Source: Cyanophora paradoxa CCMP329 (taxonomy: Eukaryota > Plantae > Glaucophyta). From it: 52,917 nucleotides of DNA. Each line of letters opens with the position of its first letter. Position 1 is the first letter of the stretch. Shown here piece after piece: positions 1-40,859 of this stretch. Below the pieces are notes generated by a model, which was given only the letters and a program-made list of their open reading frames with translations, ran no database searches and had not been told where the DNA came from. The translations under genes were made by a program, and so were the position numbers. Location: NCBI GenBank assembly GCA_004431415.1, contig QPMI01000086.1:1-52917 (forward strand). Reading direction: 5' to 3'.

Positions 1-608
1 CCATTCACTCGACCATCAGTAAAGATTCCATCAGTGAGAGCATCATAAACTTGGGATTTGATTGGGGAATTCCATATCTTCCAGGATCAAGACCAAGCAG
101 TCTAGCTGAACTCAATAGCTTTTGGATTGTTTGTTGGCTTGGTTTACAGCAAGTGAGAAAGCCAGGTAAAAAGGCACTGCCGAGTGGAATATAATTCGTT
201 TCAGTGACTCATCCCATTTGCAGCGAATGGATGGTTGGGAGTTCTGCCAATGAATTTTGAGTTGATTACATTCACCAGCTGTTGGTGGCTTTGGATGGGG
301 GTCTCGCGATTTACCATGAATTGTTTCCATTGTTCAAAATCAGCAGCTGGGCGAGTTGTTGGAATTCCTGAGCTTCCAGCTCCTGGAGTTTGTTCAGAAT
401 AATAAATACTAAATGTGTTATCAACTGTTACATCTCCTGCTTTGGTTTCACCACTCACCATAGGGATGCTGTTATAAAATTCGGCTGAGACCAGTCTCAC
501 AGCCCTCACATTCTCATAACTACTGGGGAGTCTAGCCACAAAGCTTGATGTGGGACCATCACCAGAGATTGTATTAAATGAGCTAACCTCGATGTAATCC
601 ACAGGCAT
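1..608 (-). CDS. Minor capsid/penton-like protein 1 (frameshifted in this sequence; runs off the window start)
   Basis: N-terminus YIEVSSFNT...SSFVARLPSSYENVRAVRLVSAEFYNS matches the NCLDV/PLV penton N-terminal pattern. A shifted frame near 80-110 gives ARLLGL, resembling the LLGF motif of these proteins. Confidence 0.65.
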
Positions 609-636
609 TCTTCTTTTATCTATATTATATATTAAA

Positions 637-1566
637 ATGAACCGGCTTGTTAATATTGATAGCAGGGATAGAAGCCAAGGACAAAATGAAAACTCTTACA
701 GGGTCACCCTCACAACTCCAGTAGAGAGACCAAGGGAATGCAGGGTTCTCTATGCAGAGATTCCAAACAGTATCTATAACAGTGTGGGAACTGATCATCT
801 AACAGTTCAGTTTAATTACCAAGATGGTTCATATAACCAAGTGATCACACAACAAGTGTATCCCCTTCCCAGTGGCTACATCAATCAGGGTCATTTTGGG
901 GTAACACACCCTTATAATTATGGGCTGAACTATTCAAGCTTCCAAACCATTGCAGGCAAACAGTAGCTTTTTGAGTTCAAGATATTCTACAATCCAACTA
1001 CCTATAAAGTGGAGTTTTACAGTAATCATGAGTTTCGTTTTATTGCAAGCAACAAGCGAATAGGGAAGCTTTTGGGTGTGAGTTCTACTGAATACACCAC
1101 TGGTATTATAGCACTCCTCCTGTTGGTGGATCTCCCTATCGACCTGAGAACTTTTTAAAGTTATGATGGCAAACCTATTACACCTGATCACCCAGCATGG
1201 GAATCACCTTCTCAGGACCCAGACTCTCCTCTAAGCCCTTGCCAATATTATTTTGACAGCAGGAAGATGTCTGATATGAATGCTGAGCAGTATCTGTACA
1301 TGCATATTAAAGAGCTGTCCCCCTTTGCCAGCAGACACAATATAATTCCAAAATCCAACCACAAAACCAGGGAGCTATCCTTAGATTGCAATTGAGTAAG
1401 GATATAGGGGCTATGTTTACCATAGTGGTGAGCATGCAGAATTTATTCAAATCAATGACAGAAACCTGGTGATAAGGAACTCACAGTTGAGTTTAAAGAT
1501 TACTTTGGTGAACTGATTGATATGAATGGAATCGATAATTCGTTTCAGTTGGAGTTTATCGAATAA
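637..1566 (+). CDS. Minor capsid/penton protein 2 (single jelly-roll; several frameshifts)
   Basis: Starts MNRLVNIDSRDR...YRVTL...VLYAEIPNSIYN. Later frames give IGKLLGV, EQYLYMHIKEL and the C-terminal FKDYFGELIDMNGIDNSFQLEFIE* (stop 1564-1566), which are typical penton motifs. Confidence 0.8.
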
Positions 1567-3101
1567 AGGCACCTGTAAAGTCCACTCTCATTGTGGGAGC
1601 ATTCACATACACAAGGGGATAAATGCGAATATATTTGATTCTCAGAGAAAAACCTATGTAAAAAGCATCCTTGATGCTGAGAGGAAATCCACTCAATAAA
1701 GCAACATCACCTGAGTTGTGAGCATTGTTGATGTTCTCACAGACATATATTTTGTTCTGCCCATCTGATCGAATAAAAGACCAGTTGATCCCATCAGTGG
1801 ATGTTGCCACATTGAAAGTCTTAATAAAAGCATTGGTGTCCCCTGATCCATAGGCAATCACAGAAGAGAGTTCAAAAGTATATGGAAAAGCAACTTGTAG
1901 GTATTCAGTGGGGTTTCCCATATCTGTTCAGGAGCATAGGCTCCAGCTTCCCAGCCAAATGCTGAAGGTCTAGCCATGAAAGCTCTTTACCAGTCACAGA
2001 GGATGAGGCAGTGAAGGCATCATCTGCAAGCTGATACCAATTAGCATCCAAAGGTGGTGATGTAGTGAGAGTGGATGAGATGTAAGCCTTTGTAGGGTTC
2101 TTTAATTCATAGTTTGCTACTAGAATGCTGCAAAGCTTATTAATCATATCATTGTTTGCTGCTATGTATGTTTCTGTGAAAGAAAGCATATCTGGGATTT
2201 TAGAAGTGTCATCCAGGGAGCTTACTATGTGATTCGGAAGACGGTACTGATAACCTATAGTATCTCCCATAATCCTGATCATAGTTGTAGGTAACAACTC
2301 CTCCATCTTATCAAGGGCAGAAAGCTCACTTGCAGCCATGAGCATGTAATCAATGGGCTTCCATCTGTTGAGGCAATCCATGAGAGAATGCCCAGCTGTT
2401 GACAGTCTCATAAGCATAACCCACATAATCAGACTCTAAATGTGGGTCCACCTCTCCACAGAGATACTTATTACTATAATGTCATCATCATCACTGTAAA
2501 TCTTCTTTGCATGGCTGTAACCACACACACTGGATTATTGTTTCCCGAAATGGCACCATCAATGAGACAGACATATACTCCCCGATTGAAATCAACAATG
2601 CTTACAGGTGAAAAGTATGTAGGAGCAGCAGAAGTAGCCCTAGCAGCAATCTTACAGGGCATAAAGTTGTAATTGTTATCATTGTGATAAATATTGGTTT
2701 CATATTCTGAGTATCAAAGATGTAATCACAATGTCCTTTAGGGAATCCTGTATTAGTGATTCCCCAGTAACTGAATTGATTGCAGTCTCCAAGGGTCCCA
2801 CATCATACTTTGTGTTAAATAGGGCATTTTCAATGATATTTCGAGGATTGCGAAAATCAAAGGCAGTTGAGTTAGGTAAATATTGTGTAAATCGTTTGCT
2901 GTCAGTTTAGGTTCACCTGGTCTATCAGGATGCCTTATATTCAACCTATTGCAATGATCCCACCAGTGGAAGTTCCACTCACAAGATCCACAAGATCGAT
3001 TATTCTCCTGCCAGTTCGATTTTCGATTTCTTTAGCAGCCTGGTTATGATAATGCCCCTTGCACCCCCGCCAGAAAGACTTAAAACGACCTTGAGAGGCA
3101 T
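1556..3101 (-). CDS. Patatin-like phospholipase fused to a C-terminal discoidin (F5/8 type C) domain (frameshifted)
   Basis: Manual translation from ATG at 3101 gives MPLKVVLSLSGGGARGII (Gly-rich loop), then DLVSGTSTGGIIA (GxSxG nucleophile), then LIDGAISGNNNP (catalytic Asp motif, ORF 2474-2662). The C-terminus EYLQVAF...STDGINW...YIRIYP...MRVDF is an F5/8C signature. Confidence 0.82.
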
Positions 3102-3143
3102 CTTTTACTTATCAGGAATTTATAAATCCATATAGTAAAAGCC

Positions 3144-6100
3144 ATGAGCTTCAATTACCCACCAAATCTAGAAACCATTCAAGATGATAATGCAAGCAGC
3201 ACCAAGCATGTGAACTTTGATAATATTAAAGTAAAGGGTTCAGTTTCAATTGACCACAGCTCTGATAATTCATCAAAGACTCAATCAAGGGAGCATGCTT
3301 TATCTGTGAATCAAACCGATCCAGATAAAGAGGATGTCAGTGTAGCCTTTAGTTGGGTAATGTGAAAGCAAACCAAGTGGCAGAGATCAAAGCAACAAGA
3401 AGGAGACCTAGGAAACTAAAAACCAGTGGCACTCACCAGATATACCTTCCAGGTTCGATAGTGGTCGATTGATTTTCAATGTTCAAGATGAGCAGGGCAA
3501 ACAGAACACAGCTTGCGAATTTACAATGAGGGCAGCACTGCAAAAGCTGAGGTCCCCAAGTATTGCAAGTGGGTCCCATTGCCAACACAAATCAGGTCTC
3601 CTACACAAATGATGTATACCCCAAGGATATTACATATGACTTTGCGAGGAATGAGCCTTTTGGGTTTTTACTCCAAAAGATGTCCATCAAAAAAAGCCAT
3701 CAATTACAATCAACAGTAGCCCCAGTCAACCAGTAGCAATCCATTTACATCCTGATTTAGTCGAAATGGATAGGCACCTTTTGCCTTTGTATAGCAATGT
3801 GAAAGACCTTGGAATTAGAACCAGGCAATGGCGAAATATCCATGGCAGCAATGTGTATGCAAATGGGAGAAACTTGTGAGTGAGAAAACTCTAAGGGAAA
3901 TAATTGAGCATTATGGTCCCAATGGACCAACAGTTCCATTCCCTATTCCATTTCCAAATGGACCTCCCGATTTAACACCAAAGAAACAGCCTGGAAGAGA
4001 ATACACAGCAACTGAAGATGTAGCCTTTGGGCAGCATATTGTTAGTTGGGAGCAAGTTCGCAATAAACCTATAATTGAACCCAGAAAGCAAATAGATGAG
4101 CAGTATTACCTCCTGAAGTCGATATATTAGAGCTTGATGAATATCAATTCGTTCCAGATGAGGAAGAGTATTTACCAGATGGTTTCGACCCACAAGAATA
4201 TGAGTATGATCAGTTTGACCCCAATGAGGAGGAGATACTCCCAGATGGTTTTGACCCACAAGAATATGAGTATGAACAGAACTATGAACCTGATGAGGAG
4301 TATTTACCAGATGGTCATGATCCACCAGCTGTTGACTATGAGCAACCTTATGAACCCCATGAGGAATTGTTACCAGATGGATTTCGACCTGAGATCTGGG
4401 AGTTCTTCCCTGATTATGAACAAATTAATAATAAACCTGCAAAGTATCCCCCAGAGGATCACAATCATGATTGGGATGAAATCTTGGGGAAACCTCAAAA
4501 GTATCCACCAGAGAATCACAGGCATGATTGGGGAGAAATTGATGGGATACCTACTGAGTTCCCACCAAGCAAACATGAACATACTTGGGATGAGATCAAT
4601 GACCAACCAGAATTCGCAAAGGTAGAGCCTCTTGATAACTTGGGGGTTTCTCTTTATCAGACTTGTAATGTCCCAGAAAGAATCTTTTTGAATGAACACT
4701 ATGTACATGTGAATGGGACACTTGCAAATTCAGCTATGAGAGGACCACTTCATATTAGGACATTACCAGGCTCTTTGAAACCCACCACCACCAGGAGCAA
4801 CCATACCAAATATCTTTGTGTCAAGCTACATGGAGGCTGACATTCCCACAGATACATTCAGAGTCCCAACAGACCCAGCAACCTACCAAAATTACAACTC
4901 TGCTATACAGGTTCATGTAGCAGATGTAAGCAGCTTAGATGGCTCAAGACCAATGATAGTTTTCAGTCGAGATAAGTATTCCTACATTCCCATAGTGGGA
5001 ACTGCAAATGATAATTATGGAAGGGCAGAGCTTGCATGGATTAAAACAGATTATGGTGGGGTTCTGGAAGCCAATCAAAGAATGGCTGCAAAAAACATAC
5101 ACAATGAGAGCATTTCGAGAGTAGTCACAGAGGATTACCTTCAAGCCCAAAACTACATAGATGAAACAGAGCTGAATGTAATCATTGCAGGTATAGGTGT
5201 AACAGGCAATTACCTCCCTCTCACAGGTGGAATAATTGATGGAACAGTAACAGCATGTAACTTCTTTGTCCATACTGAAAGCAATCAAACCTTTCCTGTG
5301 GTTCATCCAGGAGGTGAGTATGAGATACCTGATGATCCAGCTATTATGCCCATTAAGATTGATCTCCCTTCTGATTATGTTGGAAGGGGTGAACTGAAAA
5401 CGATCTCTTTCACAGGAGATTATAATGATCTCCTCAATAAACCCACCCCATCCAATTTACACCCTGTTGCATACTCAGGTAGTTTCCTTGATCTGAATAA
5501 TAGATCACACACCCACACAAAGGCAGAAATTATAGATTTGCACACACTCACACCAAATCCCAGATAACAGATTTTGCTCACTTCCACACCAGAGCAGATA
5601 TTACGAATTTCGCTCACACTCATGTTAAATCTGAGATCTTAGATCTCGGAAATGTTGCATATGTTGGTCACACCCATACCAAGGCAGAGATTACAGATCT
5701 TGGAAATGTTGCATATGTAGGTCACACCCACACTAAGGCAGAGATTACAGATTTTGCACATACTCATGATTGGAATACAGATATTTATAACAAACCAGCG
5801 ATTTTCTCGGGCAACTACAATGATCTGACAAATAAACCCACCCTTGATCCCTTTACAGCAAATAATATCACTGCAAATGCAAACCTTCTCATTGGATCAG
5901 GTTACTTTCTCGATTATGACCCATATATTATGCCTGATCCTCCTGTTATTTGGAATTTCCACAATTCAACCCTTTCTACTAACTCTATATCTTACTATCA
6001 GGATAAAACCCTACTTGTTCGTGGAAATGCATATGCAAGAGAAATGTGGGTCATGGATCCTCGGGACAATTCAAAGGTTACTAAGCTGGCTCCTCAATAC

Positions 6101-6408
6101 ATGCTTGATAACCTGATTAGAAAAGGGAGACATGAAATGACAATTGCAAATCCTCAAATTGGGGCAGTTCAGCAAGGCAAAACCATACCATTACATTAAA
6201 TTGGAGTCCTGCCTTTGCATCTGCTCCATCTGTTGTTGTAACATTGCAGGGACTACCTGCAACAAATGTGGAAATCGATTATAAAATAGGAATATCAAGC
6301 AACTCAACAACCTCTACCACAATCAATCTTGTTATTTGGGCAGCAGGATGGGTAACCATTCAACCACAGTGGCTTCAAATTGCAATTCATTGGATAGCAA
6401 CAGCATAA
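3144..6408 (+). CDS. Long virion fibre/adhesin-like protein (split by frameshifts; may be 1-2 genes)
   Basis: Consecutive + fragments contain acidic LPDGFDPxEYEY repeats (~4150-4400), HxHxWxEIxxKP repeats, FSGxYNDLxNKP, HTHTKAEITD repeats (~5505-5770) and YLPLTGG, all typical of phage tail fibres. The C-terminal FASAPSVVVT...IHWIATA* resembles an H-type-lectin/gp53-like tip. Confidence 0.65.
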
Positions 6409-6433
6409 TTAAGATTCTCACACTATTACAAAG

Positions 6434-7493
6434 ATGACCTCTCTATTAGAAATCCCAATTATGAACTTGCAGCCAAATCACTCCATAGCACCTCTCATGG
6501 AGTAGTTGATTCAACACCTGGGTATATTTGCACTGAAACTTCAAGTAATACCTCTTTCACAGAGAATAATATACTCAGAGTCAAAGAGATTAGATGTGAT
6601 CGAAATGGAGGCAAGATTAGAACCACAGGCATTATAATCTCGAATAAAAATCAAGTCCAATCAGTCAGGTAGTCCCGGATTCAGCAATATATGATAATGT
6701 GGGTGGAGTCACCACAGCACAGATAGTGACTTTTGGAACACAAGCAATAATTCCGCTCTTGTAGTCAAGAGTGGAGGAGCCTACATTGGAGATGGAGCAA
6801 ATGTAGCAGAACTGTCACAGCAAATCAACTATCTGTGAGTGGGACAAGTAGTTTTGGTGGGTATATGAATCTCAATGGTGGGCTTTCAGGGAATATTCAG
6901 TATGGAACACTCACGCTTTCCACAAGAATAACACACCTGAGATTGACAACATGAGTGACACAGTCATGAATTACAAGAGGAATGGGACACCATCTTTTCT
7001 CTTCAAAAAACAACTCAAATAGATAACACAACTGTTCAACATCTGACACTTCCGACAAGCAAATATCTCAAATTAAGTAGCCATCCTCGTTTCTTTGCAA
7101 CAAAACAGCAACCAAATGGGTCAATAACTGCAACAATTTCCTCAATAAATATATATCCAACAACAGGAGTCATAGTGAACCAAGGAAATCATTTCGATCC
7201 TGCGACAGGGCTTTTTACTGCCCTGTTACAGGAAACTATCTTGTCACATTTAGTGGATCCTGTTATTGGACTGGAAGAACAACTAATATTGTTACATTTT
7301 ACAGAAAAACGGAAGCTCATCTGGAATTGAAGTTAATACTAATTATGCATCTGCATATGCAAACAATGGGTTCGAAATTATTGTAGACCTTCAAGCCAAT
7401 GATTCCATCAGAATATCATATAATAGCAGTGGTGGAGGTTCTATATATTATAATATCAGATGGTTCTTTGGATGTATGCTTGTCCATTCATAA
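6434..7493 (+). CDS. Fibre paralog A: shared N-terminal module plus C1q-like head (frameshifted, absent from ORF track)
   Basis: Manual translation gives ILRVKEIRCDRNGGKIRTTG...ALVVKSGGAYIGDGA and then HPRFFA...NQGNHFDPATGLFTAPVTGNY (C1q motif). DNA is similar to 7516-8533. Confidence 0.72.
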
Positions 7494-7515
7494 TATTGTC
7501 TACATAATATAAAGA

Positions 7516-8533
7516 ATGTCTACACAAATAGCAGTTCCTGTTTTCTGTTATGCTGCCCGAAATTACATCAACTCAATCACACAGTAACAGATGCAACCCC
7601 TGGGTTTATTTGCACTGAAACAACAGGAGCCGATTCGTTTTCTCAAAACTCTGTGATCAGATGCAAAGAAATTCGATGTGATCGCAATGGGGGCAAGGTG
7701 AGAACCACAGGTTTAATAGTTTCAAACAAGAACCAAGTTCAATCAGGTCAGATAGTCTCAGATTCCACAATATATGATGATGTAGGAGGGTTCACCACAC
7801 CCAAAATAGTAACATTTAACAATACAATCAATAACTCTGCTCTTGTTGTGAGAAGTGGAGGAGCTTACATTGGAGATGGGGCAAGGGTTGATGGAACCCT
7901 AACAGCAAATCAGGTAAGTATTACAGGAACAAGCACCTTTACAGGATTGGTAACAGCAAATGCTGGTATTTCACTACCAATTGCCTCACAATCCATAATC
8001 ACAGCAACAAACAAGGTTGTCACACCAGAAATCGATACAGGAGCCAATGTAGACCTTCTTCTCAAACGAAATAGTAACACTGTCGCTACTCTGGAAGCGA
8101 ATAGTTTGACAGTTAATACAGGGTGTTATCTCAAAACATCACATCCACGATTTTCAGTTCAACTTGGCTACAATCACACTGCTACAACTTCTGCTGATCT
8201 AATAAACTGGGCAACAGTTCGAGTAAACAATACCAATTCATTCAGCACATCAACTGGAAGGTTCACAGCACCTGTTGCAGGACACTATCGTTTTTCAGTA
8301 TTCACTTCTTCAACCACAACTTCTGCTATTGAATTGTTTCTCAGGGTAAACAATGCAGATCCAGGGGATTGAGCATTTCCCAAGTTCACAATCTGTCAAC
8401 AACAAATAAAGCGCTGTGTTTCTCTTGCATTCTCAATCTTGCCCAAAACGAATTTGTTACACTTGTTACAAATTCAGTCGGTTCATATGCAAGTCAAACA
8501 GCCTTCTCAGGTGAATTAATAAGCATCGTTTAA
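7516..8533 (+). CDS. Fibre paralog B: shared N-terminal module plus C1q-like head
   Basis: ORF 7653-8372 has KEIRCDRNGGKVRTTG, SGGAYIGDG and FSTSTGRFTAPVAGHYRFS (C1q). A shifted frame ends FSGELISIV* at 8533; likely start ATG 7516. Confidence 0.78.
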
Positions 8534-8555
8534 TTTTCTTATGGTAGTTTAGGAA

Positions 8556-8822
8556 ATGTCGAATATTTACCAAGTGGTTCTATCTGATATTGAGAAGTTG
8601 GGAATGGAATTTTGTGCTGCTTCTGTTCAGGATTGGATCGATAATGCTGCCCATAACAGAGCAAGAATTGCAATTGATGAGATTGTTCAGAAAGAAATCC
8701 ATTCTTGCATCTCAGGTGGAGTTCAAATACCAACCTCAAAGGAAGCGATTGTATTACAGGCATTCCAAAGGGGAACTGTGAAGAAAGCAATTGAGTATAA
8801 CAATGTCACAGAAGAGCTGTGA
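8556..8822 (+). CDS. Small phage-like protein, putative fibre-associated/assembly partner
   Basis: Intact 88-aa ORF. The motif SVQDWIDNAAHNRARIAIDEIV...IPTSKEAIVLQAF resembles small proteins I recall adjacent to C1q fibre genes in tailed phages (recollection, not searched). Confidence 0.6.
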   Translation: MSNIYQVVLSDIEKLGMEFCAASVQDWIDNAAHNRARIAIDEIVQKEIHSCISGGVQIPTSKEAIVLQAFQRGTVKKAIEYNNVTEEL

Positions 8823-8857
8823 ACATTATTTTTCTTTCCTTCTTAGTAAAAGAAGCA

Positions 8858-9703
8858 ATGGGTGAATATAATCGAGTTCAACTGCCTATATATTCCCTTG
8901 GATCCCCAGCAATGCACTTTCGCCAGCATGAAGTTAATGATGAGGTTCGTGGTTTAGAATCCACAGAGAGACCCAATTCCAATGGCAACTCCTTTGATAA
9001 AAATTCGATTATTCGAGTTAAAGAGCTGAGAGCTGATAAGAATTCTGGTGTGGTTAAAACAACTCGACTTCTTGTCACAAATGCTAACTTCTTTCAGCCT
9101 ACTAATGGAGGTCCTGATGCTTACAGTGTTGATCTGAAAGCCCTTGATTATGATAAAAACACTGCTGCTGTAACTGTGAGATCAGGAGGAGCATTTATTG
9201 GTGGTGGCTGCAGAGTTTCAGGTCAACTTTCATCCTCAATTTCGTATAATGATGTCCCAGATACTCTTGAACAAAATGTAGAGAACCCACAACGAATTCG
9301 ATTATATATACCAGTTGCACAACAGCCAGTTATTCAATTTTACCAAGGTTATACTGTCACACTTGAAAACTCTGAATTGATTGAAGGAACCAAAAGAGTA
9401 ATGAGAGGGCTGGTCATTCCTTCTGCAATGCTTTCTTTATGTAGAGCCAACAATAACCAGCCAGGTCACAGATACAATTTCAGTGTTCAGGGATATGATC
9501 ATTTTGGCACAGGGTTCTGTGTTTATAATAACAATTTCACCTATGATCTGTTTGTTACAGATATTGGAAAATATACAATTACAGTTATGGGTATCAGAAC
9601 AGATATAGCTGCTGTCTCAGCTCTTAGAGGTGTTACTCCTGATACTCTTTCTCAAACAGGGTTTTACCAAGAGCCAGATGTAATTGATGACCCAACCCCA
9701 TAA
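8858..9703 (+). CDS. Fibre paralog C: shared N-terminal module plus phage-fibre-type C-terminal domain
   Basis: Intact ORF (track 8819-9703; likely start MGEY). Contains IRVKELRADKNSGVVKTTRLLVTNANF, SGGAFIGGG and C-terminal YTITVMGIRTD. Confidence 0.72.
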   Translation: MGEYNRVQLPIYSLGSPAMHFRQHEVNDEVRGLESTERPNSNGNSFDKNSIIRVKELRADKNSGVVKTTRLLVTNANFFQPTNGGPDAYSVDLKALDYDKNTAAVTVRSGGAFIGGGCRVSGQLSSSISYNDVPDTLEQNVENPQRIRLYIPVAQQPVIQFYQGYTVTLENSELIEGTKRVMRGLVIPSAMLSLCRANNNQPGHRYNFSVQGYDHFGTGFCVYNNNFTYDLFVTDIGKYTITVMGIRTDIAAVSALRGVTPDTLSQTGFYQEPDVIDDPTP

Positions 9704-9726
9704 AAGATATATCCCTTTAATGTAAA

Positions 9727-10560
9727 ATGGCTGAGCAACCCCCACTTGAACGAATTATTACACCACAGCTATCATTAGCTGCCCCAGCAAACCATGTTCT
9801 ACAGCATGCTACCTTTGATGATGTAGAGGGTCTCCAATCGACAGAGGTCCAACCTACAATGAACACCTTTGGTTCCACCCATAAACTGAGATTACAGGAA
9901 CTCAGATGTGATAAAAATAATGGAATAGTTAAGACAACTAAGCTACTTGTTACCAATGCAAACTTTTCTGCTCATTATGGAGACCCAGATAGCTATGGAG
10001 ATCCTCTTTCTACTTATTCTTTTGAATCTAGGTCGGGAGCTATTAACTGCAAATCGGGGGGAGCTTATATTGGTGATGGTCTTAGGGTTGGTGGGGCTGT
10101 TGGAGCGCCTCTATTTGTGAATGATCAACCCAATCCCATTGATCCCAACACAAGAATTCGAACCTATGTCCCCAGCATGAATGCCCCCTATATAATCAAG
10201 ATATTCCCCATTGTTGTGAATGAACAAACAGCAGTAGTAGATTCTCTTGTTGAGATTGGTGACCACTACAAGGTAGTTGTGGATATTCCACCAGATGTTT
10301 ATGCTCTTTGTCAAGTAGAGGGTGGAACTCCTAATTTTGCAGTTGTGATCACCCCATATGATAATTTTGGTATTGCTTATCATGGAGTCAATTTCGGTTT
10401 GGAAGACTATCAGTTTCTGGTTAGAGCCACCAAGTTTGGTATCTACAAGTGTGTATTATATGCTGAGAGAACCGATTTTATTGCAAAGCAGAATACCTAT
10501 GCTGAATACTATGGGACAAATCGATATTTCCCCATTTTCGGGCAGGATACTGCTCCATAA
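9727..10560 (+). CDS. Fibre paralog D: shared N-terminal module plus phage-fibre-type C-terminal domain
   Basis: Intact 277-aa ORF with LRLQELRCDKNNGIVKTTKLLVTNANF, SGGAYIGDG, FVNDQPNPIDPNTRIR and ITPYDNFG...VLYAERTD; paralogous to C. Confidence 0.75.
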   Translation: MAEQPPLERIITPQLSLAAPANHVLQHATFDDVEGLQSTEVQPTMNTFGSTHKLRLQELRCDKNNGIVKTTKLLVTNANFSAHYGDPDSYGDPLSTYSFESRSGAINCKSGGAYIGDGLRVGGAVGAPLFVNDQPNPIDPNTRIRTYVPSMNAPYIIKIFPIVVNEQTAVVDSLVEIGDHYKVVVDIPPDVYALCQVEGGTPNFAVVITPYDNFGIAYHGVNFGLEDYQFLVRATKFGIYKCVLYAERTDFIAKQNTYAEYYGTNRYFPIFGQDTAP

Positions 10561-10582
10561 GAATATTGGTTATATATAGAGT

Positions 10583-10855
10583 ATGGATAGTAAAACAAAA
10601 AAGTTTATTGATGCTGCTATGACAGTCCATGGTAAAGATAAATTCGATTACAGTGAGACACATTACATCAAAGCTCAAGAGAAAGTATCTGTTAGATGTT
10701 TGCAATGTAACAAGGTGATCCTAACATATCCCTTTAATCATGTGAAGGGATCAGGGTGTAGGGACTGTAACAAAAGAAAGAGTCAAGCACACAGGAAAAG
10801 GGCTACTTCATCAATCAGAGTAGAGTATAGGGATATTTGCATTAGGTTTGACTAG
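10583..10855 (+). CDS. Zn-ribbon protein (DUF723/homing-endonuclease-associated repeat)
   Basis: FIDAAMTVHGKDKFDYSETHY...KVSVRCxxC...HVKGSGCRDC matches the repeat found in phage and giant-virus endonucleases; no nuclease domain is attached. Confidence 0.7.
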   Translation: MDSKTKKFIDAAMTVHGKDKFDYSETHYIKAQEKVSVRCLQCNKVILTYPFNHVKGSGCRDCNKRKSQAHRKRATSSIRVEYRDICIRFD

Positions 10856-10878
10856 TTAATTTTTCTAAGGTATTCTTA

Positions 10879-11277
10879 ATGGAGACTAAATACAGAGGCT
10901 TTCATGTTATGCTTGATTACAAGGCTAAATCAGCTATTGCAACAGGACATGAGCATGTAAGCTTCCTAGGTAATTGGATTATGGGAACCCTTGAACAAGC
11001 AGTATTAAGACAAGGCATTAGGATTGTTCATAAACACTGTGAGATATTTGATGGCAAAATATCACCTCCTGGTTTTGCATTGGTTCTGCTATTAGATGAA
11101 AGCCATTGCACAGCTCATTGTTATTCCAATGAAGGCATGTTAGCAATTGATATATTCAGTTGTGGTAAAGAAGCTCAGCATAAAACACAAGCAGTTGCAG
11201 ATGAGATCGATAAAACAATGAATTTCTTAACATTTGAGAAGACTGAGAGACATAAACATGATAGATTCCCGTTTTGA
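10879..11277 (+). CDS. speD: Prokaryotic-type S-adenosylmethionine decarboxylase proenzyme (or neofunctionalised homolog)
   Basis: Intact 132-aa ORF with GFHVMLD, PPGFALVLLLDESHCTAHCY (E-S self-cleavage site) and AIDIFSCG. Confidence 0.88.
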   Translation: METKYRGFHVMLDYKAKSAIATGHEHVSFLGNWIMGTLEQAVLRQGIRIVHKHCEIFDGKISPPGFALVLLLDESHCTAHCYSNEGMLAIDIFSCGKEAQHKTQAVADEIDKTMNFLTFEKTERHKHDRFPF

Positions 11278-11693
11278 TGGGTTTCTATTATGGTGATCAG
11301 GGTGATTTACCTTTTTATTACAATGGCAATCGTTAAAAAAGGATATAATATATCCTTTCCTACAATAGCTTTCTACAATGATTTTCTTTCTACAGTAGCT
11401 TTTGTTACAATAGAATTCTACTGTATGATGTAGCCGAAATATGAATGCACCCTACATTAAGCAATGTCAAGTATTTCGAATACTATTCGATTTCCTTACA
11501 ATAACACTCAGCATCTGCCCTAGATTCCCCCTATTATATTATATTTATATTTAAGTGGACTCAAGGTTGACTCATATTAATCGTAAAAGTAGTAAAAGTA
11601 TATGGATTTTGTTACGAATTCAATGCAAGGGTTGACTAAGTGGGTTGAGTTGACTCAAATTTCACAGGAAATAACAATGAATCAGAGTATAAA

Positions 11694-12153
11694 TGCATTT
11701 TTTGAATCAACTACACCAACTAACACTGAGATTTTACCAATATATGAGGTCCTTACTGAATATGGTTTGTGTGACAGGTGTGACAGGTCTATCCCAAACT
11801 TTTCTATAGCATAAAAATGAACTCTCAAAAGTTTGGGATGGACCTGTCACACCTGTCACACTCGATTATTTCATTTGTTTATTCAAGTAGAATTACATAG
11901 ATAAACTTCTTACTTATTGTTACTGAGTTTTTCATTATAAAAGAGATCCTTACTGAATATGGTTTGTGTGACAGGTGTGACAGGATGCATTTTGTGAATC
12001 AACTACACCAACTAACACTGAAATTTTAACATTAAAAGAGATCCTTACTGAATATGGTTTGTGTGACAGGTGTGACAGGTCTATCCCAAACTTTTCTATA
12101 ACATAAAAATGAACTATCAAAAGTTTGGGATAGACCTGTCACACCTGTCACAC
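11694..12153. repeat. Duplicated ~165-bp unit, each containing a 35-bp inverted repeat of GTGTGACAG(G) iterons
   Basis: Arms 11769-11803/11827-11861 (1 mismatch) and 12061-12095/12119-12153 (perfect), each with a 23-bp spacer. A half copy lies at 11966-11984. Confidence 0.92.
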
Positions 12154-12405
12154 CCAATTATTTCAAAAATCCTAAGGGTCCCCCCTTAGAATCATTAAAA
12201 CATGATAAAAACATATAAGTTTCATGTATAATTACGATTGGATTCAATAAGAGATCGATTTGTTTTATTAAACAAATGAATCTAATATGGATCTTAATCG
12301 AGTTAAGCGATATATTTCCGATTAAATGAATTAAATTTAATTAAATTTAATCGAGAAAGTACATGAATATAATATCGATTAAATCAATTAACTTTTAGAC
12401 CAATC

Positions 12406-12688
12406 ACACATAGTAAAATGCGGAGTTTTAACCAGAGGCAAGATCTAATTGAGATTCAGTTATATTATTCGGAAATATATACAGATTATCGATAGACTCA
12501 GTAAGACTAATCGGAAAATAAGAGAAATTTACGATAAAATATCGAAAAGAATACAAAATAATCGAAATAAATGAATATTCGATAAGATATACACAGATTA
12601 TCGATTGATTGAAATAGAATATACGAGATATATCAACAAAATCAATTAAGATAAGCCGAGGGTTAAAACTCCGCATTTTACTATGTGT
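12406..12688. repeat. Terminal imperfect hairpin of the viral element (28-bp perfect stem)
   Basis: ACACATAGTAAAATGCGGAGTTTTAACC (12406-12433) is the exact reverse complement of 12661-12688. The interior shows patchy inverted symmetry. Confidence 0.88.
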
Positions 12689-13801
12689 CACAGCAGCTGA
12701 TTCACTGCGACGACGTGCTGCGAAACCTTGAAGCCCAAGGCATAGCCAACGATTTCGACGGATACCGGTGCGTACAAGTCTAGATCTACACTCCAAATCA
12801 GAAAACATGCGTGTCTTAGTTGCATGCAATAGGGTGCATGCACCCGTGTTCGATCTATCCATAAGCTGATCGAACTTGGCCTCAGGTATATGCTCACGAA
12901 GATTATGCAAAGTACGAAGGACATCCCAGAGCAGTTCGCGTTCTCCGGGGCTGAGAAAGTCTGGGACAACCTGTACGGCTACATGACGCCGGAGGTGGCG
13001 AGCAACTCTATCTGGGCGCAGACGGTGACGAAGACCATGACGGAGAAGGACGTGCAAGCCGCCATCGCCAAGTTCGATGCGGCCGGCGACAACGATGGGA
13101 TGCTGGACAAGAGCGAGTTCCTGGCGTGCCACGAGCCCGTCATGTCTACATTCAACCCGAACTCGACCGAGGTGCGCGAGCTTCTAGGCGAGCTATATGT
13201 AGGTTGATATTAAAATCGGACTGCACGAGCAAGCGTACGTATATCAAACTTCTCTTTTTCCGCAGCTCACATACAGCACCGACCCTGCAGCGGTGCGTAT
13301 GCGCATGTTCTTCATTTCTATCGTTTTCAGCCCAGAACAGCATGCATACCGCCTTCCTTCTAGAGATAATCCCATTCGAACTTGACTTCCATGATTGTCA
13401 CTCGGGGTCTCTGAACGTGCACGCAATCGCAGGATTTTGAGTACCAAATGAAACTGCAGCAGGTGGAGATGTTCAAGCAAATGTTCGGGCCCGGGGAAGA
13501 TTACATGATGTACATGGATCATTATCACGTGCGCATACGCATGCGCATAAACACGGGCCACAACTCTCATAATGATAACTTGACATGGGGCGCGAGCTCG
13601 AGGGCGCGAACCCCTCTGTACAGTGTCCCGCTAGCGCTACCCCAGCCGGCCGACCCCGACGCCTGTGTCGCCGGGCAGGTGGAGGAGCCGTCCGACTTCG
13701 AGGCGGCGGAGGTCGAGTTTGCTGAGAACGCTGCCGCCGACGAGGCCGCCGCCGCCGCTGCCGAAGTCGCCTGCGCGGACGAGCAGTGCCTGGCTTCTTG
13801 A
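12689..13801 (+). pseudogene. Host EF-hand-containing gene, copy A, 3' part cut off by the viral insertion
   Basis: Near-identical to 30,247-31,358; EF-hand-like DAAGDNDGMLDKSEF. The acceptor gtagg of copy B reads ataag here (~12,861-12,865). Confidence 0.75.
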
Positions 13802-14193
13802 TCCCCTGCATCGCGTCCACGACTGCTATACTATAGCTATCGTTGTTTGTCTGCGTGCCCGCCAAACCGTCGACAGCGTGTCTGCCAACGCGTACGTAAA
13901 CCGATCGCTATAAATGTAAATATTTATAGATGATCGTGATCAGTCACCTGCACGGTATCTGTCTTGGTTGTTGATTGAGCAGCCGAATTTTCATACGTGT
14001 TCCAGGAGCGGGCGAGCTGAGCTCAGCCAGAGGGAGAGTATATATATGCATTGTCCAGCCTGAGATCGCCTACAGCTAGATATAGAAACATATATGTCTA
14101 GATACTTTGACTAGTGGCCAAATAACGCGCTGTACCAAAATAACGCGCCCGCGGCCAAAACTAGGTACCGGGTTGATTTGACATACGTACGTA

Positions 14194-17100
14194 CTAGTGG
14201 CCCGGCCGCGATTCTCGCGCCGGGGGTGCAAGGGGGGAACCGGGATCTAATGAAAGAGTCCTAGTGGCGCGCACATGCGCGCGGCAGAACGACCCCGGCC
14301 CAGTGCGCGCGGCAGGTCGAAGGTTAAAGATAAACACAGATTATGATTGGAAAAATAGAAAAGGCCCGATAAGCACACGCTGCGATCAAACCGAATAACG
14401 TGATGCTACACAAACTGCCGGATTTCAGACAGCTCGAGAGCTTGGGCTCGAGACTCGGGCAGCCACCCGAGACCTCGGGACGGGTAGCAGAACTGGCAAA
14501 AAACGGGTAGCACGTAGGGACAGTTCGCTACAAAGAGGCACGAGATGCCGCAACAGCACGCAACCGCGCGGGAGAGCGAAGAGCGTGTACCGGAAGCACC
14601 GGGCGGGTAGCTAGGCGCGCTGGATAGCTCCCCGGCGCCCGCGCCGCCGACCGACCCGACACCCTGTCTTCGGCGCGTTCGCACGCCCCGCGCGGCGAGT
14701 CTGGCCTAGTCTGGCCGCTGGGGTAGTTGTATATATGTTGCAGCCGGCACGTAGCTAGCTACAGCCAGCACCGCGGACGCCCCGCGCCTTGTGTGAACGG
14801 CCGACCTGTGCGGCTTCGGTGACTGGGTGCGATCCATCGCTCCAGGCGCGGCAGTATCGCTTCCCAGGGTGCCACATACATGCTATTGCACTTACGCTAC
14901 TGCGGCCCCTTCTCTGACCGCGGCCGCAGTGTCACAGTGTGCTCGGGAGAGCGCGGGCCGGGGCGCTTCGCGGGGGCAAGCGTGGTGCGGTGCCGTCATG
15001 CGGAGCAGGGTTCTACACAACTAAGAGCAGCGTTTGTCATCACAGAACAAGTCCGCACTCGCTGGCGCGGCACGTCGCTGTCCACCGTGCTTCTCTTGCT
15101 CTCGCAGAACAAGTCCGCCCTCGCCGGCGCGGTGCACCGCTGTCTGCGGCGCCGCCAGCTCACGCCGAGCCCGCCCGTGCAGCCCCGCCCGCGCCCCCCG
15201 CCCGCCCGCCGCGCGCCCCGCCGCAGGAGGCCGCGGGGCACCGCCCCGGGCGCCTCGGACGCGAGGGGACGACGCCGCGACGCCGCCGACGCCGCCAGCT
15301 CACGCCGAGCCCGCCCGTGCAGCCCCGCCCGCGCCCCTCGACCGCCCGCCGCGCGCCCCGCCGCAGGAGGCCGCGGGGCACCGCCCCCGGGCGCCTCGGA
15401 CGCGAGGGGACGACGCCGCGACGCCGCCGACGCCGCCAGCGGACGCCGAGCCCGCCCGTGCAGCCCCGCCCCGCGCCCTCCACCCGCCCGCCGCGCGCCC
15501 CGCCGCAGGAGCCCGCGCCGGGCAGCCCCCGGGCGCCTCAGACGCGAGGGGACGACGCTGCGACGCTGCCGACGCCGCCAGCTCAAGCCGAGCCCGCCCG
15601 TGCAGCCCCGCCCGCGCCCCTCGACCGCCCGCCGCGCGCCCCGCCGCAGGAGGCCGCGGGGCACCGCCCCCGGGCGCCTCGGACGCGAGGGGGCGAGGCC
15701 GCGACGCTGCCGACGCCGCCAGCTCAAGCCGAGCCCGCCCGTGCAGCCCCGCCCCGCGCCCTCCACCCGCCCGCCGCGTGCCCCGCCGCAGGAGCCCGCG
15801 CCGGGCAGCCCCGGGCGCCTCAGGCGCGAGGGGACGACGCCGCGACGCCGCCGACGCCGCCAGCGGACGCCGAGCCCGCCCGTGCAGCCCCGCCCCGCGC
15901 CCCCCACCCGCCCGCCGCGCGCCCCGCCGCAGGAGGCCGCGGGGCACCGCCCCCGGGCGCCTCGGACGCGAGGGGCGAGGCCGCGACGCTGCCGACGCCG
16001 CCAGCTCAAGCCGAGCCCGCCCGTGCAGCCCCGCCCCGCGCCCTCCACCCGCCCGCCGCGTGCCCCGCCGCAGGAGCCCGCGCCGGGCAGCCCCCGGGCG
16101 CCTCAGGCGCGAGGGGACGACGCCGCGACGCCGCCGACGCCGCCAGCGGACGCCGAGCCCGCCCGTGCAGCCCCGCCCCGCGCCCCCACCCGCCCGCCGC
16201 GCGCCCCGCCGCAGGAGGCCGCGGGGCACCGCCCCGGGCGCCTCGGACGCGAGGGGGCGAGGCCGCGACGCCGCCGACGCCGCCAGCGGACGCCGAGCCC
16301 GCCCGTGCAGCCCCGCCCTCACTCCCCGCCCGCCCGCCGCGCGCCCCGCCGGAGGAGCCCGCGACGGACCGCCCCCGAGGGCCCAGGACGCGAGGGGGTG
16401 AGGCCGCGACGCCACCGACGCCGTAGATCAGCCCCCTAGGCCCTGAGGCCTAGCTTCATGTAGCTTTGCTTTCTCGCCTCAGAGGCCCACTTTCGCGACC
16501 CAGAGGCCTTCCTTTAGCCTATGTTTTGTTCCAAAAGCATGTAAATGACTTGTATTCTGCGCCCTGAGCGCTGTATGCGACTGGGCGGGCGAGGATCACT
16601 CAGGAGGCATCTGGGGCCCCAATTTCCAGTAGTTTTTGAATACGGGCCCAGGCTTTGATCGGCGGCCTTCGGTACCACCACCATCGTCTTCAGCACCCTC
16701 GAAAACCCCCGGGGACGTGAAATCATCGTTGTTGAGTGAGTTGATGCTTCAATCAGGCATCATGAGCACGTCGAAGTGGCATTTTGGAACTTGAAAACTG
16801 AAAAGTTCCAGAGAGGGTCCTACGAGTAAAGTTCAAAACATCGGTCCGGCCCAAAAACACTTCGGATCACCCTGTATCTTCGTGCAGTGATATATCTACA
16901 TGTGATAATGATTCTGGCTGAAAGAGCGCCCGCTGGGGCCAGCCAGTCGCCCAGGAACTCACTGGCTCACTGGAACTCATGAGCAATCTCTGCTGGGGAA
17001 GCGCGCGCCAGGGCCGCGCTGCATCCGCGCATGCGCTATTCATGCGCTAATTGAATCGCGCTACGGCGGCCCTGCGAGTCCTCGCGGTGCTGAGCCCTCG

Positions 17101-29157: not shown

Positions 29158-31358
29158 CTGTCGAGGTCAACGGCCAAGGCACCTACATGTACTCGCACGG
29201 CGGCCTCTACGTCGGCGATTACGCCAAGCCCGGTCTCGAGGCGAGCGAACGACTTCAGATAAATTCAAACATGTGGTCAGAGAGACCGTCGGACGATCAG
29301 ATGTGCTAACCAGACGGCGAGCTCAGGTCGGAACGTACGAGATCTATGCCCGCGACGTCAAGTCCTCAGCCGTCGAAACGCCGGTGCACTCATCGGAAAA
29401 TGTGGACCCTAACCAGGTACGCTCACGCTCGCAACTGCAAACTTGTAGTTTAGGGTCTTCCGATATCCAGCTGGATATCGCTCCTCGAAAGCTCGTCGCT
29501 GATGCAGTGCATATCCATGCTCTGCACGCAGGAGCAACTGCCCCGTGGCACCTCAATCCGGCTGGGGACCCATCATCACCCCGGACGGCGAGGCCACGGG
29601 CGACCGCGTGCGCATGCGCTGATCTGTCTGATCTCTCTCAGCTGAAATGCTGATGGACGGACCGGGTACCGGCACTATGTCACTCGCGCAGGTCCCGCGT
29701 CGGAAGTTCTGGAGGCGTCGGACAGCACCGACCTGGAGCCGCGGCAGACAATCTCTGGTCCGCGATCCGCTTTGCTATCCGATGTCCCTGCTTGACGCTA
29801 CACTGTCCACGCTGCCGGCAGGGATCTGAAGCTCATTCCCGAGTTCAAATCGGACTCGATTCCAGGGCCCAAATCATGCCCCACGGTTCGCTTACGCGCT
29901 TCTCGCTTCGCTAAATTGAAGTGCTACAAGAAGAACATGCATATGCTTTCTCACGGCAAACTTCGTTTGTCTGTGTCATCGCAGGGAGAGTGCCTGGACG
30001 TCCAGGCCCCCATCCACAACGCTACGGACTTTCTCAAACCGCCTGCGAGTGCGTTTCGCATACTTTAAACCTCACGCACAAATATATATATAGCATACAT
30101 TTGCATATATACGATTTATAAACCAGCGTCGAGGTTCAAATTCGAATTCAGGGCCAGACGTTGAGATCGCGCGCGCGTGCGGTTTCGCAGCAGCGAGTCG
30201 GCCACCTGCGAAGTGCCCGTGGGCTTGAAGTGCCCGCTTGCGAACGCACAGCAGCTGATTCACTGCGACGACCTGCTGCGAAACTTCGAAGCCCAAGGCA
30301 TAGCCAACGATTTCGACGGATACCGGTGCGTACAAGTCTATATACAGCTCGATTCCAAATCAGAAGTCATCCGTGTGTTAGCTGCATGCACTTGGGTGCA
30401 CGCACCCGTGTTCGATCCGTAGGCTGATCGAACTTGGCCTCAGGTATATGCTCACGAAGATTATGCAAAGTACGAAGGAGATCCCAGAGCAGTTCGCGTT
30501 CTCCGGCAAGGAGGCAATCTGGGACACCCTGTTCGGCTATATGACGGCGGAGATGCCGAGCGACCTTATCTGGTCTAATGTTGTGAACAAGACCATGACG
30601 GAGAAGGACGTGCAAGCCGCCGTCGCCAAGTTCGATGCGGCCGGCGACAACGATGGGATGCTGGACAAGAGCGAGTTCCTGGCGTGCCACGAGCCCGTCA
30701 TGTCTACATTCAACCCGAACTCGACCGAGGTGCTTGAGATACAAGGCTATATAGCTCGCTAGAGACCGATGCACGTGCAAGTGCACGTGCAAGCGTACAT
30801 ATATCAAACTTCTCTTTTTCCGCAGCTCACATACAGCGACGACCCTGCAGCGGTGCGTATGCGCATGTTCTTCATTTCTATCGTTTTCAGCCCAGAACAG
30901 CATGTATACCGCCTTCCTTCTAGATATAATCCCATTCAAACTTGACTTCCATGATTGTCACTCGGCCGCGGGTCCCTGAACGTGCGCGCGATCGCAGGAT
31001 CGTGAGTACGAAATGCAACAGCAGAAGGTGGAGATGTTCAAGAAAATGTTCGGGGAAGATTACATGTTGTATATGGATCGTTATTTCGTGCGCATATGCA
31101 TATGCATGGGCCACTTTAAATTCTCATAATTATAACTTGACATGGGGCGCGAGCTCGAGGGCGCGAACCCCTCTGTACAGTGTCCCGCTAGCGCTACCCC
31201 AGCCGGCCGACCCCGACGCCTGTGTCGCCGGGCAGGTGGAGGAGCCGTCCGACTTCGAGGCGGCGGAGGTCGAGTTTGCTGAGAATGCTGCCGCCGACGA
31301 GGCCGCCGCCTCCGCTGCCGAAGTCGCCTGCGCGGACGAGCAGTGCCTGGCTTCTTGA
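29158..31358 (+). CDS. Host multi-exon gene with an EF-hand-like motif and acidic tail, copy B (uninterrupted; 5' limit uncertain)
   Basis: Short exons bounded by AG and GT/GC encode SVEVNGQGTYMYSHGGLYVGDY, VGTYEIYARDVKSS, CEVPVGLKCPLANAQQLIHCDDLLRNFEAQG, FDAAGDNDGMLDKSEF and VEEPSDFEAAEVEF...CLAS*. Confidence 0.65.
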
Positions 31359-31821
31359 TCCTCGCATCGCGTCCACGACTGTGCATCGCGATCACTTGCA
31401 CGGGATCTGTCTCGGTCCTTGAGCAGTCGAATCATTGAATTCGCAGTTAAATATGCATCTACCCACTTGAGAATCCGAATCTCTCGACACATATATACGT
31501 GTCCCGATCCAGCATTAATATTAGCAATCGCAGCCTGGCGAGCCAATTCTCGGCGCGCATGCATTGTCACGCTTAAGATCGCCTGCCAGCTGAAGGCTGA
31601 GGCCCTTCCGTTTGGCTCGGAGATCTAGATCGATATCTACATACATGATTTCGATCTAGATACATGTAGATACTTTGACTAGTGATAAATGAACGCTGTA
31701 TCAAAATAACGCGCCGAAGTCTTTAGATACCGCGTTAATTGATAAACGTACCGCGCTATAGCTATATAGCTAACTCCCTGCTGCGATGTCGCCCATACAT
31801 TACACTCCCGCGGGAACCTCG

Positions 31822-39042: not shown

Positions 39043-39736
39043 CGCCGTGACGGCCGGCCCTTGGCCGTCGCCCGGATTCCCCTTCGAATCACTTTCGCAT
39101 TCCGGGATCCTTTTAATTGTAAATAATATTTAGTGCGAGATTGCTCGACTCGCCTTCTAGTGCTGCCTTCAGCTTGGCTTTGTATTTGTACATTTGCAAT
39201 TGATATCGGTTCCTTATAGTCATACTGTATCGATATCCGCAGTTTCTATGGACATGATCATGAGCGTTGCGATCGCTGTAAAACCTCAAATTTGAGTTCT
39301 ACCTCCCATGATCATGAGTGTCGTCACTTGTACTACTACTTGCAAATGCAATATTTATGTAATTGCAGATCCCGCTTGCCAAGTGGAATCCTCCCTCTCA
39401 TGAATGTCGTCGACGTCTTTTACAAATGCGATATACTTAGTTATAAATAATTACTGAAGACGCAAGCGACACTTCGAAAAAAAAGGTTGACGTCGGACAG
39501 TGCACGTGTAACATGTGGAAACACAAGCTGTCAAGCGCACCGCGCCGCGCCGGCCCTGGCGGAGGTCAACGGGCGGACGCGGAATTCGAGTTCGAGGAGC
39601 TCGAGGCGGGGGGCGGCCCGGCGGCGCGTGGTTGGCCGGCCTCGGCCTCCCGCGCCTCGCGCCCGCCACCTGTTTCACGCAAACGGACAACCGACACGCG
39701 TGAAATCTCTCTCCCTCCCGCCTCCTAAGGCAAATA

Positions 39737-40685
39737 CTAGTGGCCCGGCCGCGATTTTCGCGCCGGGGGGGCAAGGGGGGAACCGGGATCTAATGAAAGA
39801 GTCCTAGTGGCGCGCACATGCGCGCGGCAGAACGACCCCGGCCCAGTGCCGAGCGCAACAAGAGCGCCCGGCCCGGCCGGCGTGCTCGGCTGCGGGCAGC
39901 GGCGCACGCGGTTCTGCGGTATAAGCTCGATATCGGCAGCGTGCTGAGCGCAGCAAGAGAGCACGGTCTGGACGGCCGGCGTGCTCGGCTGCGATCAGCG
40001 GCGCAGCTAGGCAGCGGCGCAAGCTTGATGCAGTGAAAAGTAGTCCAGGCGGCACGCGTACGGGTACCGTGCGGCGTACGCGGCGCACTGCGAGGAAGCG
40101 GAAATCTAGAGGAGACAGCTATGGAGTAGTGGTTCCATGCAGAACCGCGCAACGAATTCGAAGAGCTAGTAATATAAACTAGTATTACAGTTACCACTTC
40201 TCCCTAGCTGTCTCCTCTAGATCTAGATTTCGGCTTCGTCGCAGTGCGCCGCGTACGTACGCCTTGCTCTTCGTTGCGCGGTTCTGCATGGAACCACTAC
40301 TCCATAGCTGTCTCCTCTAGATTTCCCGGAGTCCGCTTCCTCGCACTGCGCCGCGTACGCCGCACGGTACCCGTGCAGTCTGGACTACTTTTCACTGCAT
40401 CAAGCTTGCGCCGCTGCCTAGCTGCGCCGCTGATCGCAGCCGAGCACGCCCGGCCGTCCAGACCGTGCTCTCTTGCTGCGCTCAGCACGCTGCCGATATC
40501 GAGCTTATACCGCAGAACCGCGTGCGCCGCTGCCCGCAGCCGAGCACGCGTGACCGAGCCGAGGGGTCGCGCGAAGCGCGCGACCCGAGGGGAGGACTCT
40601 GCGCATGTGCGTGCCACTAGGACTCTTTCATTAGATCCGGTTCCCCCCTTGCACCCCGGCGCGAAAATCGCGGCCGGGCCACTAG
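39737..40685. mobile_element. Foldback-type non-autonomous DNA transposon (~950 bp, ~400-bp inverted arms)
   Basis: TA|CTAGTGGCCCGGCCGCGATTTTCGCGCC...GGCGCGAAAATCGCGGCCGGGCCACTAG|TA. The arms ~39,737-40,160 and ~40,265-40,685 are largely reverse-complementary. Confidence 0.9.
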
Positions 40686-40859
40686 TATCATTCGAAATTC
40701 CCACAAGTGATTCTTCATATATCATGTCCGCATCGATGTAACTGGTGGGCTACGAAGCGACATAGATCCAGTCGACTTCAAATTCGGAACAACATTATGG
40801 TGCACGATACTCCTGTTGACATCAGAATGGCGACTGCATCTAATATAAGAAGTTACACG

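Follow-up and report, generated by a model that had tools for sequence, protein, structure and literature searches.

What lies at the left end of contig QPMI01000086.1 of the glaucophyte Cyanophora paradoxa CCMP329 (assembly GCA_004431415.1), and has anything like it been described before? The window, that is, the whole stretch of DNA analysed here, spans the 52,917 nucleotides of this contig, and a first-pass annotation, made from the sequence alone, had proposed an integrated capsid-coding virus at positions 1-12,688. Our analysis indicates that this block is very probably the right part, 12.7 kb long, of a penton-coding DNA virus integrated into the host genome, where the same terminus occurs elsewhere as well. 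The virus is likely a polinton-like virus (PLV) of the glaucophyte type and is predicted to insert by means of a retroviral-type (rve) integrase. The AT-rich, intronless block that had been annotated is readily recovered: window 1-12,688 has a GC content of 40%, with values per kb of 0.34-0.42 up to 13 kb and 0.48-0.84 past there. Coding is dense over the first 11.3 kb; the rightmost five open reading frames (ORFs; 8,556-11,277) are intact, separated by gaps of 22-36 nt and without any sign of introns. The element measures at least 12.7 kb, compared with 14-40 kb for endogenous PLVs, and its left side runs off the window.

The visible element begins with two penton genes, as the first-pass annotation had it; they are divergent and separated by a 28-nt AT-rich spacer, and the left one is weaker. 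Of six matches to the ORF at 637, one is a close homologue, the intact protein P0004 (314 aa, 58%), and window positions 637-1560 align with the full length of P0004 at 45% identity. An independent penton profile, comprising 28 of the 30 alignment rows with P0004 and the window left out, gave as its best two of four matches 640-1560 on the plus strand (independent E-value, iE, 2.7e-15) and 411-632 on the minus strand (iE 3.8e-4). Matches on both strands thus indicate two divergent pentons, of which the left one is less firm. Compared with the PDB, the full 30-sequence profile matched PBCV-1 P1v1 (E 5.8e-18) and P1 (E 2e-7), the sole two matches at E<=1; PDB sequence searches with the window penton and with alignments A2 and A3 gave no significant match. 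In a Foldseek search with an AlphaFold model of P0004, the top nine matches were Sputnik, mavirus penton and PBCV-1 capsid chains, consistent with a penton fold; a single-sequence fold of P0004 was uninformative (predicted local distance difference test, pLDDT, 33). The Atlas penton score was 0.97 to clusters of Nucleocytoviricota, Preplasmiviricota and Sputnik V18/19, at a recognition value of 1872, under the tool's 2300 mark. An IMG/VR search with the penton alignment returned one distant giant-virus contig, and phage records held no match to the penton. Profile, Atlas and Foldseek results together point to a single jelly-roll minor capsid protein, as expected of endogenous PLVs. A Caudoviricetes prophage was rejected: contrary to the Caudoviricetes-only grouping considered in the first-pass annotation, the pentons match eukaryotic viruses, and phage-like resemblance in the element is confined to fibre domains.

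The right end of the element is defined to the base, as had been claimed. Homology between the host flank and its virus-free paralogue starts exactly at 12,689, which sets the junction at 12,688/12,689, 201 bp upstream of a 105-aa ORF in the host flank. A short-read junction contig (12,662-12,759) matches the window with 0 mismatches at a depth of 98 in run X1 and 37 in run X4; host contigs have depths of 106-124 and 34-69, respectively, and the junction is thus at single-copy level. The same contig is present in a 2012 run and a 2024 run, and the insertion at 12,688 is fixed at single-copy depth in both. Inwards of the junction lies the palindrome-rich end of the earlier annotation, which comprises a pair of hairpins with 35-bp arms and, at the terminus, a perfect inverted repeat of 28 bp. 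Fold z-scores were -10.9 for the hairpin region and -9.2 for the terminal region, with 0 of 100 shuffles equally stable in each, and a six-frame family scan of the last 1.4 kb gave no match. Contigs of X15 and X19, two runs tentatively labelled as RNA that extend over the non-coding end, are unbroken from ~12,200 up to 12,688 and thereby connect the terminal 283 bp with subterminal DNA. As for a target-site duplication, 5-6 bp long in rve types, the X1 empty-site contig breaks where a duplication of 6-7 bp would branch; the X4 contig runs through. Maverick/Polinton transposons end in 5'-AG...CT-3', a terminus absent from the right end, which reads ...GTGT at 12,688.

The same terminus precedes at least four other flanks in short-read contigs (17 of 25 loose ends listed), so that the search for other copies suggested by the first-pass annotation gave a positive result. 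Single terminal contigs reach a depth of 6258 in X1 and 2595-3297 in X4, roughly 50-90 times the host level, and these rough depth ratios correspond to about 50-90 termini per genome. Sharp boundary, GC offset and repeated insertion into host DNA were all found, as expected of an endogenous PLV; together with the penton profile and the Foldseek matches, the additional flanks support the view that a capsid-coding virus has integrated here and that its terminus is genuine. Depth varies from gene to gene between ~10 and >50 times the host level: in X1, it is ~1,150-1,550 over fibres A/B, 3,024 over 9,380-9,662 and 6,500-9,200 over 2,681-3,553, a spread that suggests mosaic subfamilies. The X1 terminal depth, which bears on whether both ends carry the inverted repeat, is about twice that of 9380-9662, yet similar to that of 2681-3553; one end of the element is visible. 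Contig depth over the fibre A/B region (6061-8606) is about five times below that over the patatin region (2681-3553), suggesting that fibre cassettes differ among copies. We also observed X1/X4 contigs at 12590-12664 and 12385 in which the inner side of the terminal region continues into different sequence, a hint that ends elsewhere in the genome may be truncated or variant.

Table 1. Features of the element and its host flank in the window, with the evidence for each.
Feature	Position	Strand	Evidence and state
Penton (minor capsid) gene 1, N-terminal part	1..608	-	Profile match 411-632 and aligned motifs; frameshifted as assembled, off window edge
Penton gene 2	637..1566	+	Profile match and homologue P0004; frameshifted as assembled
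Patatin-like phospholipase, then discoidin (F5/8 C) domain	1556..3101	-	Pfam; in pieces as assembled
Long fibre-like gene, perhaps two genes	3144..6408	+	PHROG, Pfam, tandem repeats; in pieces
Fibre-like paralogue A, C1q-like head	6434..7494	+	tblastn from paralogue B; weak C1q E 0.04
Fibre-like paralogue B, C1q head	7516..8533	+	Pfam C1q E 8.5e-10; shared N-terminal domain
88-aa ORF, no assigned function	8556..8822	+	Intact ORF
Fibre-like paralogue C, 281 aa	8858..9703	+	35% identity to paralogue D; intact
Fibre-like paralogue D, 277 aa	9727..10560	+	63-64% identity to P0002, P0003; intact
90-aa zinc-finger-like ORF	10583..10855	+	PHROG; resembles non-catalytic part of HNH endonucleases
Prokaryotic-type S-adenosylmethionine decarboxylase (AdoMetDC) homologue	10879..11277	+	Pfam PF02675, TIGR03330, PDB; intact
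181-bp direct repeat, two copies	11693..12165		Each with hairpin, 35-bp arms (11769-11861, 12061-12153)
Terminal 283 bp, element end at 12,688	12406..12688		Bounded by 28-bp perfect inverted repeat
Host flank, one copy of duplicated host segment	12689..13825	+	89% identity to 30247-31381 from first flank base
Virus-free paralogue of flank, stand-in for empty site	30247..31381	+	Homology; host DNA lies upstream

Between pentons and terminus, the annotated lipase, five fibre-like genes and AdoMetDC were all recovered. The lipase region encodes a patatin and, downstream of it on the same strand, a discoidin domain, the two likely forming one fused gene (two separate pieces match Pfam Patatin, at E 9e-6 and 4e-4; F5_F8_type_C matches at E 1.8e-7). 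The fibre-like genes are one PTR/H-lectin gene, possibly two, and four paralogues. The former combines acidic 22-aa repeats, phage-tail-like repeats, PTR repeats and a C-terminal H-type lectin (PHROG tail matches down to E 6e-8; Pfam PTR E 9.7e-9, H_lectin E 7.5e-4). Paralogues A-D have one N-terminal domain in common, family matches among the fibre genes are confined to PTR, H-lectin and C1q domains, and two of the four paralogues are called fibre-like through paralogy alone. Paralogue A contains at least five frame changes as assembled, and the Atlas look-alikes of fibre D are unnamed viral clusters at 0.93. Phage-like fibre domains have already been reported for PLVs (Bulzu 2025, PMC12220804). 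The AdoMetDC homologue matches Pfam PF02675 (E 2.8e-11) and TIGR03330 (E 1.4e-11, under the curated cut-off), its E-S cleavage motif aligns with those of solved enzymes (PDB 1vr7, 1tlu), and six cyanophage records match it at 31-39%. The 90-aa ORF matches PHROG 681 (E 3e-9) and PHROG 559 (E 3e-8), with ~66 of ~600 positions covered in each; for the 88-aa ORF, scans of Pfam, PHROG and further family libraries gave no convincing family.

The first-pass annotation had regarded this gene set as unusual and the lineage as undescribed, a claim that is for the most part not borne out by comparison with catalogued viruses. Table S6 of Bulzu 2025 (PMC12220804) holds 156 glaucophyte PLV elements, with AdoMetDC in 66, lipase in 89, minor capsid in 97, A32 ATPase in 139, rve in 85, pPolB in 49, D5-type primase in 40 and tyrosine recombinase in none. 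The same source gives a single report of a PTR-PTR-H_lectin fibre, in a Cyanophora paradoxa PLV, and finds discoidin, alone, paired or fused to patatin, chiefly in rhizarian (23) and glaucophyte (11) PLVs; AdoMetDC occurs in 10/177, 17/57 and 45/706 members of three cryptophyte sets. The window element has in common with the glaucophyte PLVs AdoMetDC, lipase, discoidin with patatin, PTR with C-terminal H-lectin, minor capsid and many copies per genome. Because its accessory set matches the tabulated elements, the gene set is ordinary, and domain architecture makes membership of a catalogued PLV family that has not been described in detail the most likely assignment. A pair of pentons is not unique either, as several Trimcap-B PLVs carry two, and phospholipases occur in several PLV groups (bioRxiv 2026.06.19.733378); Trimcap PLVs are defined by three major capsid genes, a region that falls outside the window, and their group A is tied to marine stramenopiles. 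Part of the novelty claim does stand: the glaucophyte elements are unnamed and unplaced, the standard PLV capsid model being matched by 2 of the 156 (PMC12220804), and no published description of the terminus structure was found in the literature searched. Glaucophyte PLVs thus appear to have been entered in catalogues with scarcely any description, as counts rather than anatomy are given; the available portions of the published text contain no terminus, target-site duplication, penton-pair or composition data, and those of the 2026 PLV framework (bioRxiv 2026.06.19.733378) and of Barth 2026 contain no mention of glaucophytes. No literature pairing polinton with adenosylmethionine decarboxylase was found; such main-text blanks are weak, since AdoMetDC is present in the supplementary table.

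Among other known systems, mavirus and the endogenous mavirus-like elements (EMALEs) of Cafeteria have the penton fold in common with the element. EMALEs are AT-rich, occur as multiple insertions in the DNA of a GC-rich host and encode an rve integrase and a lipase. Mavirus and EMALEs are, however, defined by a virophage-type capsid and a cysteine protease, and neither occurs in any of the 156 glaucophyte elements (PMC12220804). The closest solved and contig relatives of the window penton are PBCV-1 penton P1 and DUF5901-like pentons of giant viruses; metagenomic giant-virus-like homologues share ~20% identity and belong to large genomes, not multi-copy insertions. The element behaves like an endogenous PLV, and its formal membership rests on penton, boundary and copy number.

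As assembled, the majority of genes to the left of 8,400 carry frameshifts, a point absent from the first-pass annotation; this raises the question of whether this copy is intact. Short-read contigs disagree with the window at 95 indel sites. The best 12 of these 95 are single extra bases, all left of 3,600, and extend a same-base run in 12 of 12 cases, compared with 45% by chance. False frameshifts in multi-copy endogenous viral elements (EVEs) are on record (Bellas 2023, section 7, PMC10120064), and the same-base runs together with this artefact indicate that most of the frameshifts probably arose as errors when a repeat was assembled without polishing. Since many copies are merged in the contigs and rare variants are lost, open frames are argued for the family, not for this copy. 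The first-pass suggestion of a possibly intact virus is therefore plausible for the family, where short-read contigs contradict many of the breaks. Alternative stop-codon sets yielded no single clean frame set over the broken genes, and the standard code was retained.

The element also has a distinctive short-word composition. Over 1-11,300, compared with dinucleotide shuffles, GGCC occurs 0 times against 22.6 expected and GTAC 3 times against 22.4. CG is depleted about fourfold overall in a context-dependent manner: TCGA is found 39 times against a neutral 40.6, CG with T before or A after, on one side only, 59 times against 189, and CG with neither 10 times against 220. Compared with synonymous shuffles, nine open frames show 53 CG against 141, 1 GTAC against 17.4 and 21 TCGA against 20.5. 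A depletion of CATG seen with dinucleotide shuffles disappeared with synonymous shuffles (27 against 19) and was dropped. Post-insertion decay is disfavoured as the cause of CG loss because the clean and broken halves show the same pattern, because synonymous sites are affected and because five host repeats are not depleted (CG observed/expected ratio 1.15-1.24). Among 32 penton-bearing viral control loci, many of them from giant-virus bins and none an endogenous PLV, TCGA-sparing CG loss was found in none, and single-site avoidance of GGCC in three and of GTAC in one. Six of the controls (L017, L018, L025, L026, L027 and L029) have almost lost one 4-base palindrome (TCGA, GGCC or GTAC), as is typical of restriction-site avoidance. 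The signature was not seen in host DNA. The literature searched held nothing relevant on PLVs that avoid certain sites or are depleted in CpG. The signature may reflect exposure to the restriction-modification enzymes of a helper virus, or it may reflect long-term pressure of a host methyltransferase by which TCG is spared.

Several points weigh against an integrated glaucophyte-type PLV. The structural model is that of P0004, not of the window's own protein; its mean pLDDT is 59.5, 150 of 314 residues are below 50 and the insertion region is unresolved. The tie to the glaucophyte set is one of domain architecture, not sequence. AdoMetDC homologues may use arginine or ornithine instead (PMC9992855). 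Contig depth, open to GC bias, is a rough estimate of copy number; pooled contigs leave room for true decay of this copy, and real slippage likewise favours same-base runs. The junction contig contains 27 viral letters, below the 31-letter bridging rule, and no other contig satisfies that rule. Major capsid, ATPase, polymerase and integrase are all without a match inside the 12.7 kb of element in the window, and giant-virus proteins are, among solved structures and contigs, the closest relatives of the penton.

These last two points would fit the end of a larger provirus related to Nucleocytoviricota, such as a giant endogenous viral element (GEVE), which would hold core genes across more than 100 kb, or a relative the size of a Mriyavirus; we consider this alternative to a PLV unlikely. 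Two viruses of the Algavirales have a functional AdoMetDC of prokaryotic type (PMC9992855), and GEVEs are present in Cyanophora (PMC12344493). Iterative searches in Cyanophora paradoxa gave 366 capsid matches in two clusters, with HHpred matches of these EVE capsids to those of nucleocytoplasmic large DNA viruses (NCLDVs; Bellas 2023, PMC10120064 Table S2). Pfam and PHROG scans of the visible 12.7 kb revealed no Nucleocytoviricota core gene, and the Pfam matches over 1-12,692 included no A32-like packaging ATPase (both strands were scanned at 1-4,832 and 11,281-12,692, the plus strand between). A small mobile element nevertheless fits better with termini that number in the dozens and share a single precise end at five or more flanks; moreover, the accessory set matches elements filed as PLVs, and NCLDV-like capsid modules are known in PLVs of 20-30 kb (bioRxiv 2026.06.19.733378).

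A decayed, non-infectious relic with transposon-like spread, past or present, and with the terminal 283 bp as a separate miniature element, would account for the many breaks left of 8,400, for the inverted arms that the terminal segment has of its own and for the wide range of depth across genes. We regard this as very unlikely, given that the X15 and X19 contigs link the terminal segment to subterminal DNA, that the best 12 of the 95 indels look like assembly errors, that the five rightmost ORFs are intact and that CG is avoided at synonymous sites of open frames. An assembly chimera of a free or contaminating virus with host DNA, to which the error-rich start of the window inside the element and the short viral part of the junction contig might point, is barely credible in view of the mismatch-free, single-copy junction contig of 2012 and 2024 and of the 14 of 24 same-organism runs that hold half or more of the words.

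Further searches of the window and its proteins were negative. Rfam and ARAGORN gave zero RNA or tRNA matches, and a sigma-70 promoter scan was at chance level. IMG/VR held no relatives with fibre D, alignment A1, the terminal 18-mer, AdoMetDC or P0004 as query, JGI metagenomes held no related loci, and three window proteins had no exact-sequence match in the protein collection. Several repeats were observed in the host DNA. A 955-bp element at 39734-40688, 82% self-complementary, has its end repeated at 14192-14306 and a part of itself at 18864-18991, and resembles a host transposon of the foldback or MITE type. A GC-rich tandem array at 15150-16423 has nine copies of a 141-bp unit. Leucine-rich-repeat coding segments at 21466-21979 and 31975-32481 are 86% identical, and this pair and the 12689/30247 pair suggest local segmental duplication of host DNA.

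For the integrated glaucophyte-type PLV, a life cycle may be proposed from known families. Pentons would cap the capsid vertices, fibres with C1q and lectin heads would bind the cell surface, and the patatin-discoidin protein may breach a membrane and so aid entry, as Bulzu 2025 proposes (PMC12220804). AdoMetDC would support polyamine supply during replication. Going by the published family table, major capsid, A32 ATPase, pPolB or primase-helicase and rve integrase are expected to the left, and the integrase would insert the linear genome with a short target duplication, as is the general rule. The hairpin region is a likely, putative origin and integrase-binding end, and host CG methylation, by which viral genes are silenced in Cyanophora (PMC12344493), would plausibly keep the copies latent.

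What is new here is one well-bounded terminus for a scarcely described family, together with its composition signature; broken-looking genes in such elements, moreover, can be assembly artefacts. A bolder and rather doubtful extension is that the element represents an unnamed, still-mobile, PLV-sized lineage with a giant-virus-type capsid module that replicates in the factory of an unknown giant virus; the absence of GGCC, the scarcity of GTAC and the loss of CG outside TCGA would then be an imprint of the helper's restriction-modification enzymes, and the 50-90 termini would mark the ends of a dormant antiviral arsenal equipped with a polyamine enzyme of its own. Were this true, the helper's restriction specificities would be predicted before its isolation. 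Either reading of the signature is testable on existing methylome or giant-virus data, and, should it stem from helper restriction-modification or from host methylation with a context bias, sequence by itself would suffice to infer the replication partner of a silent provirus.

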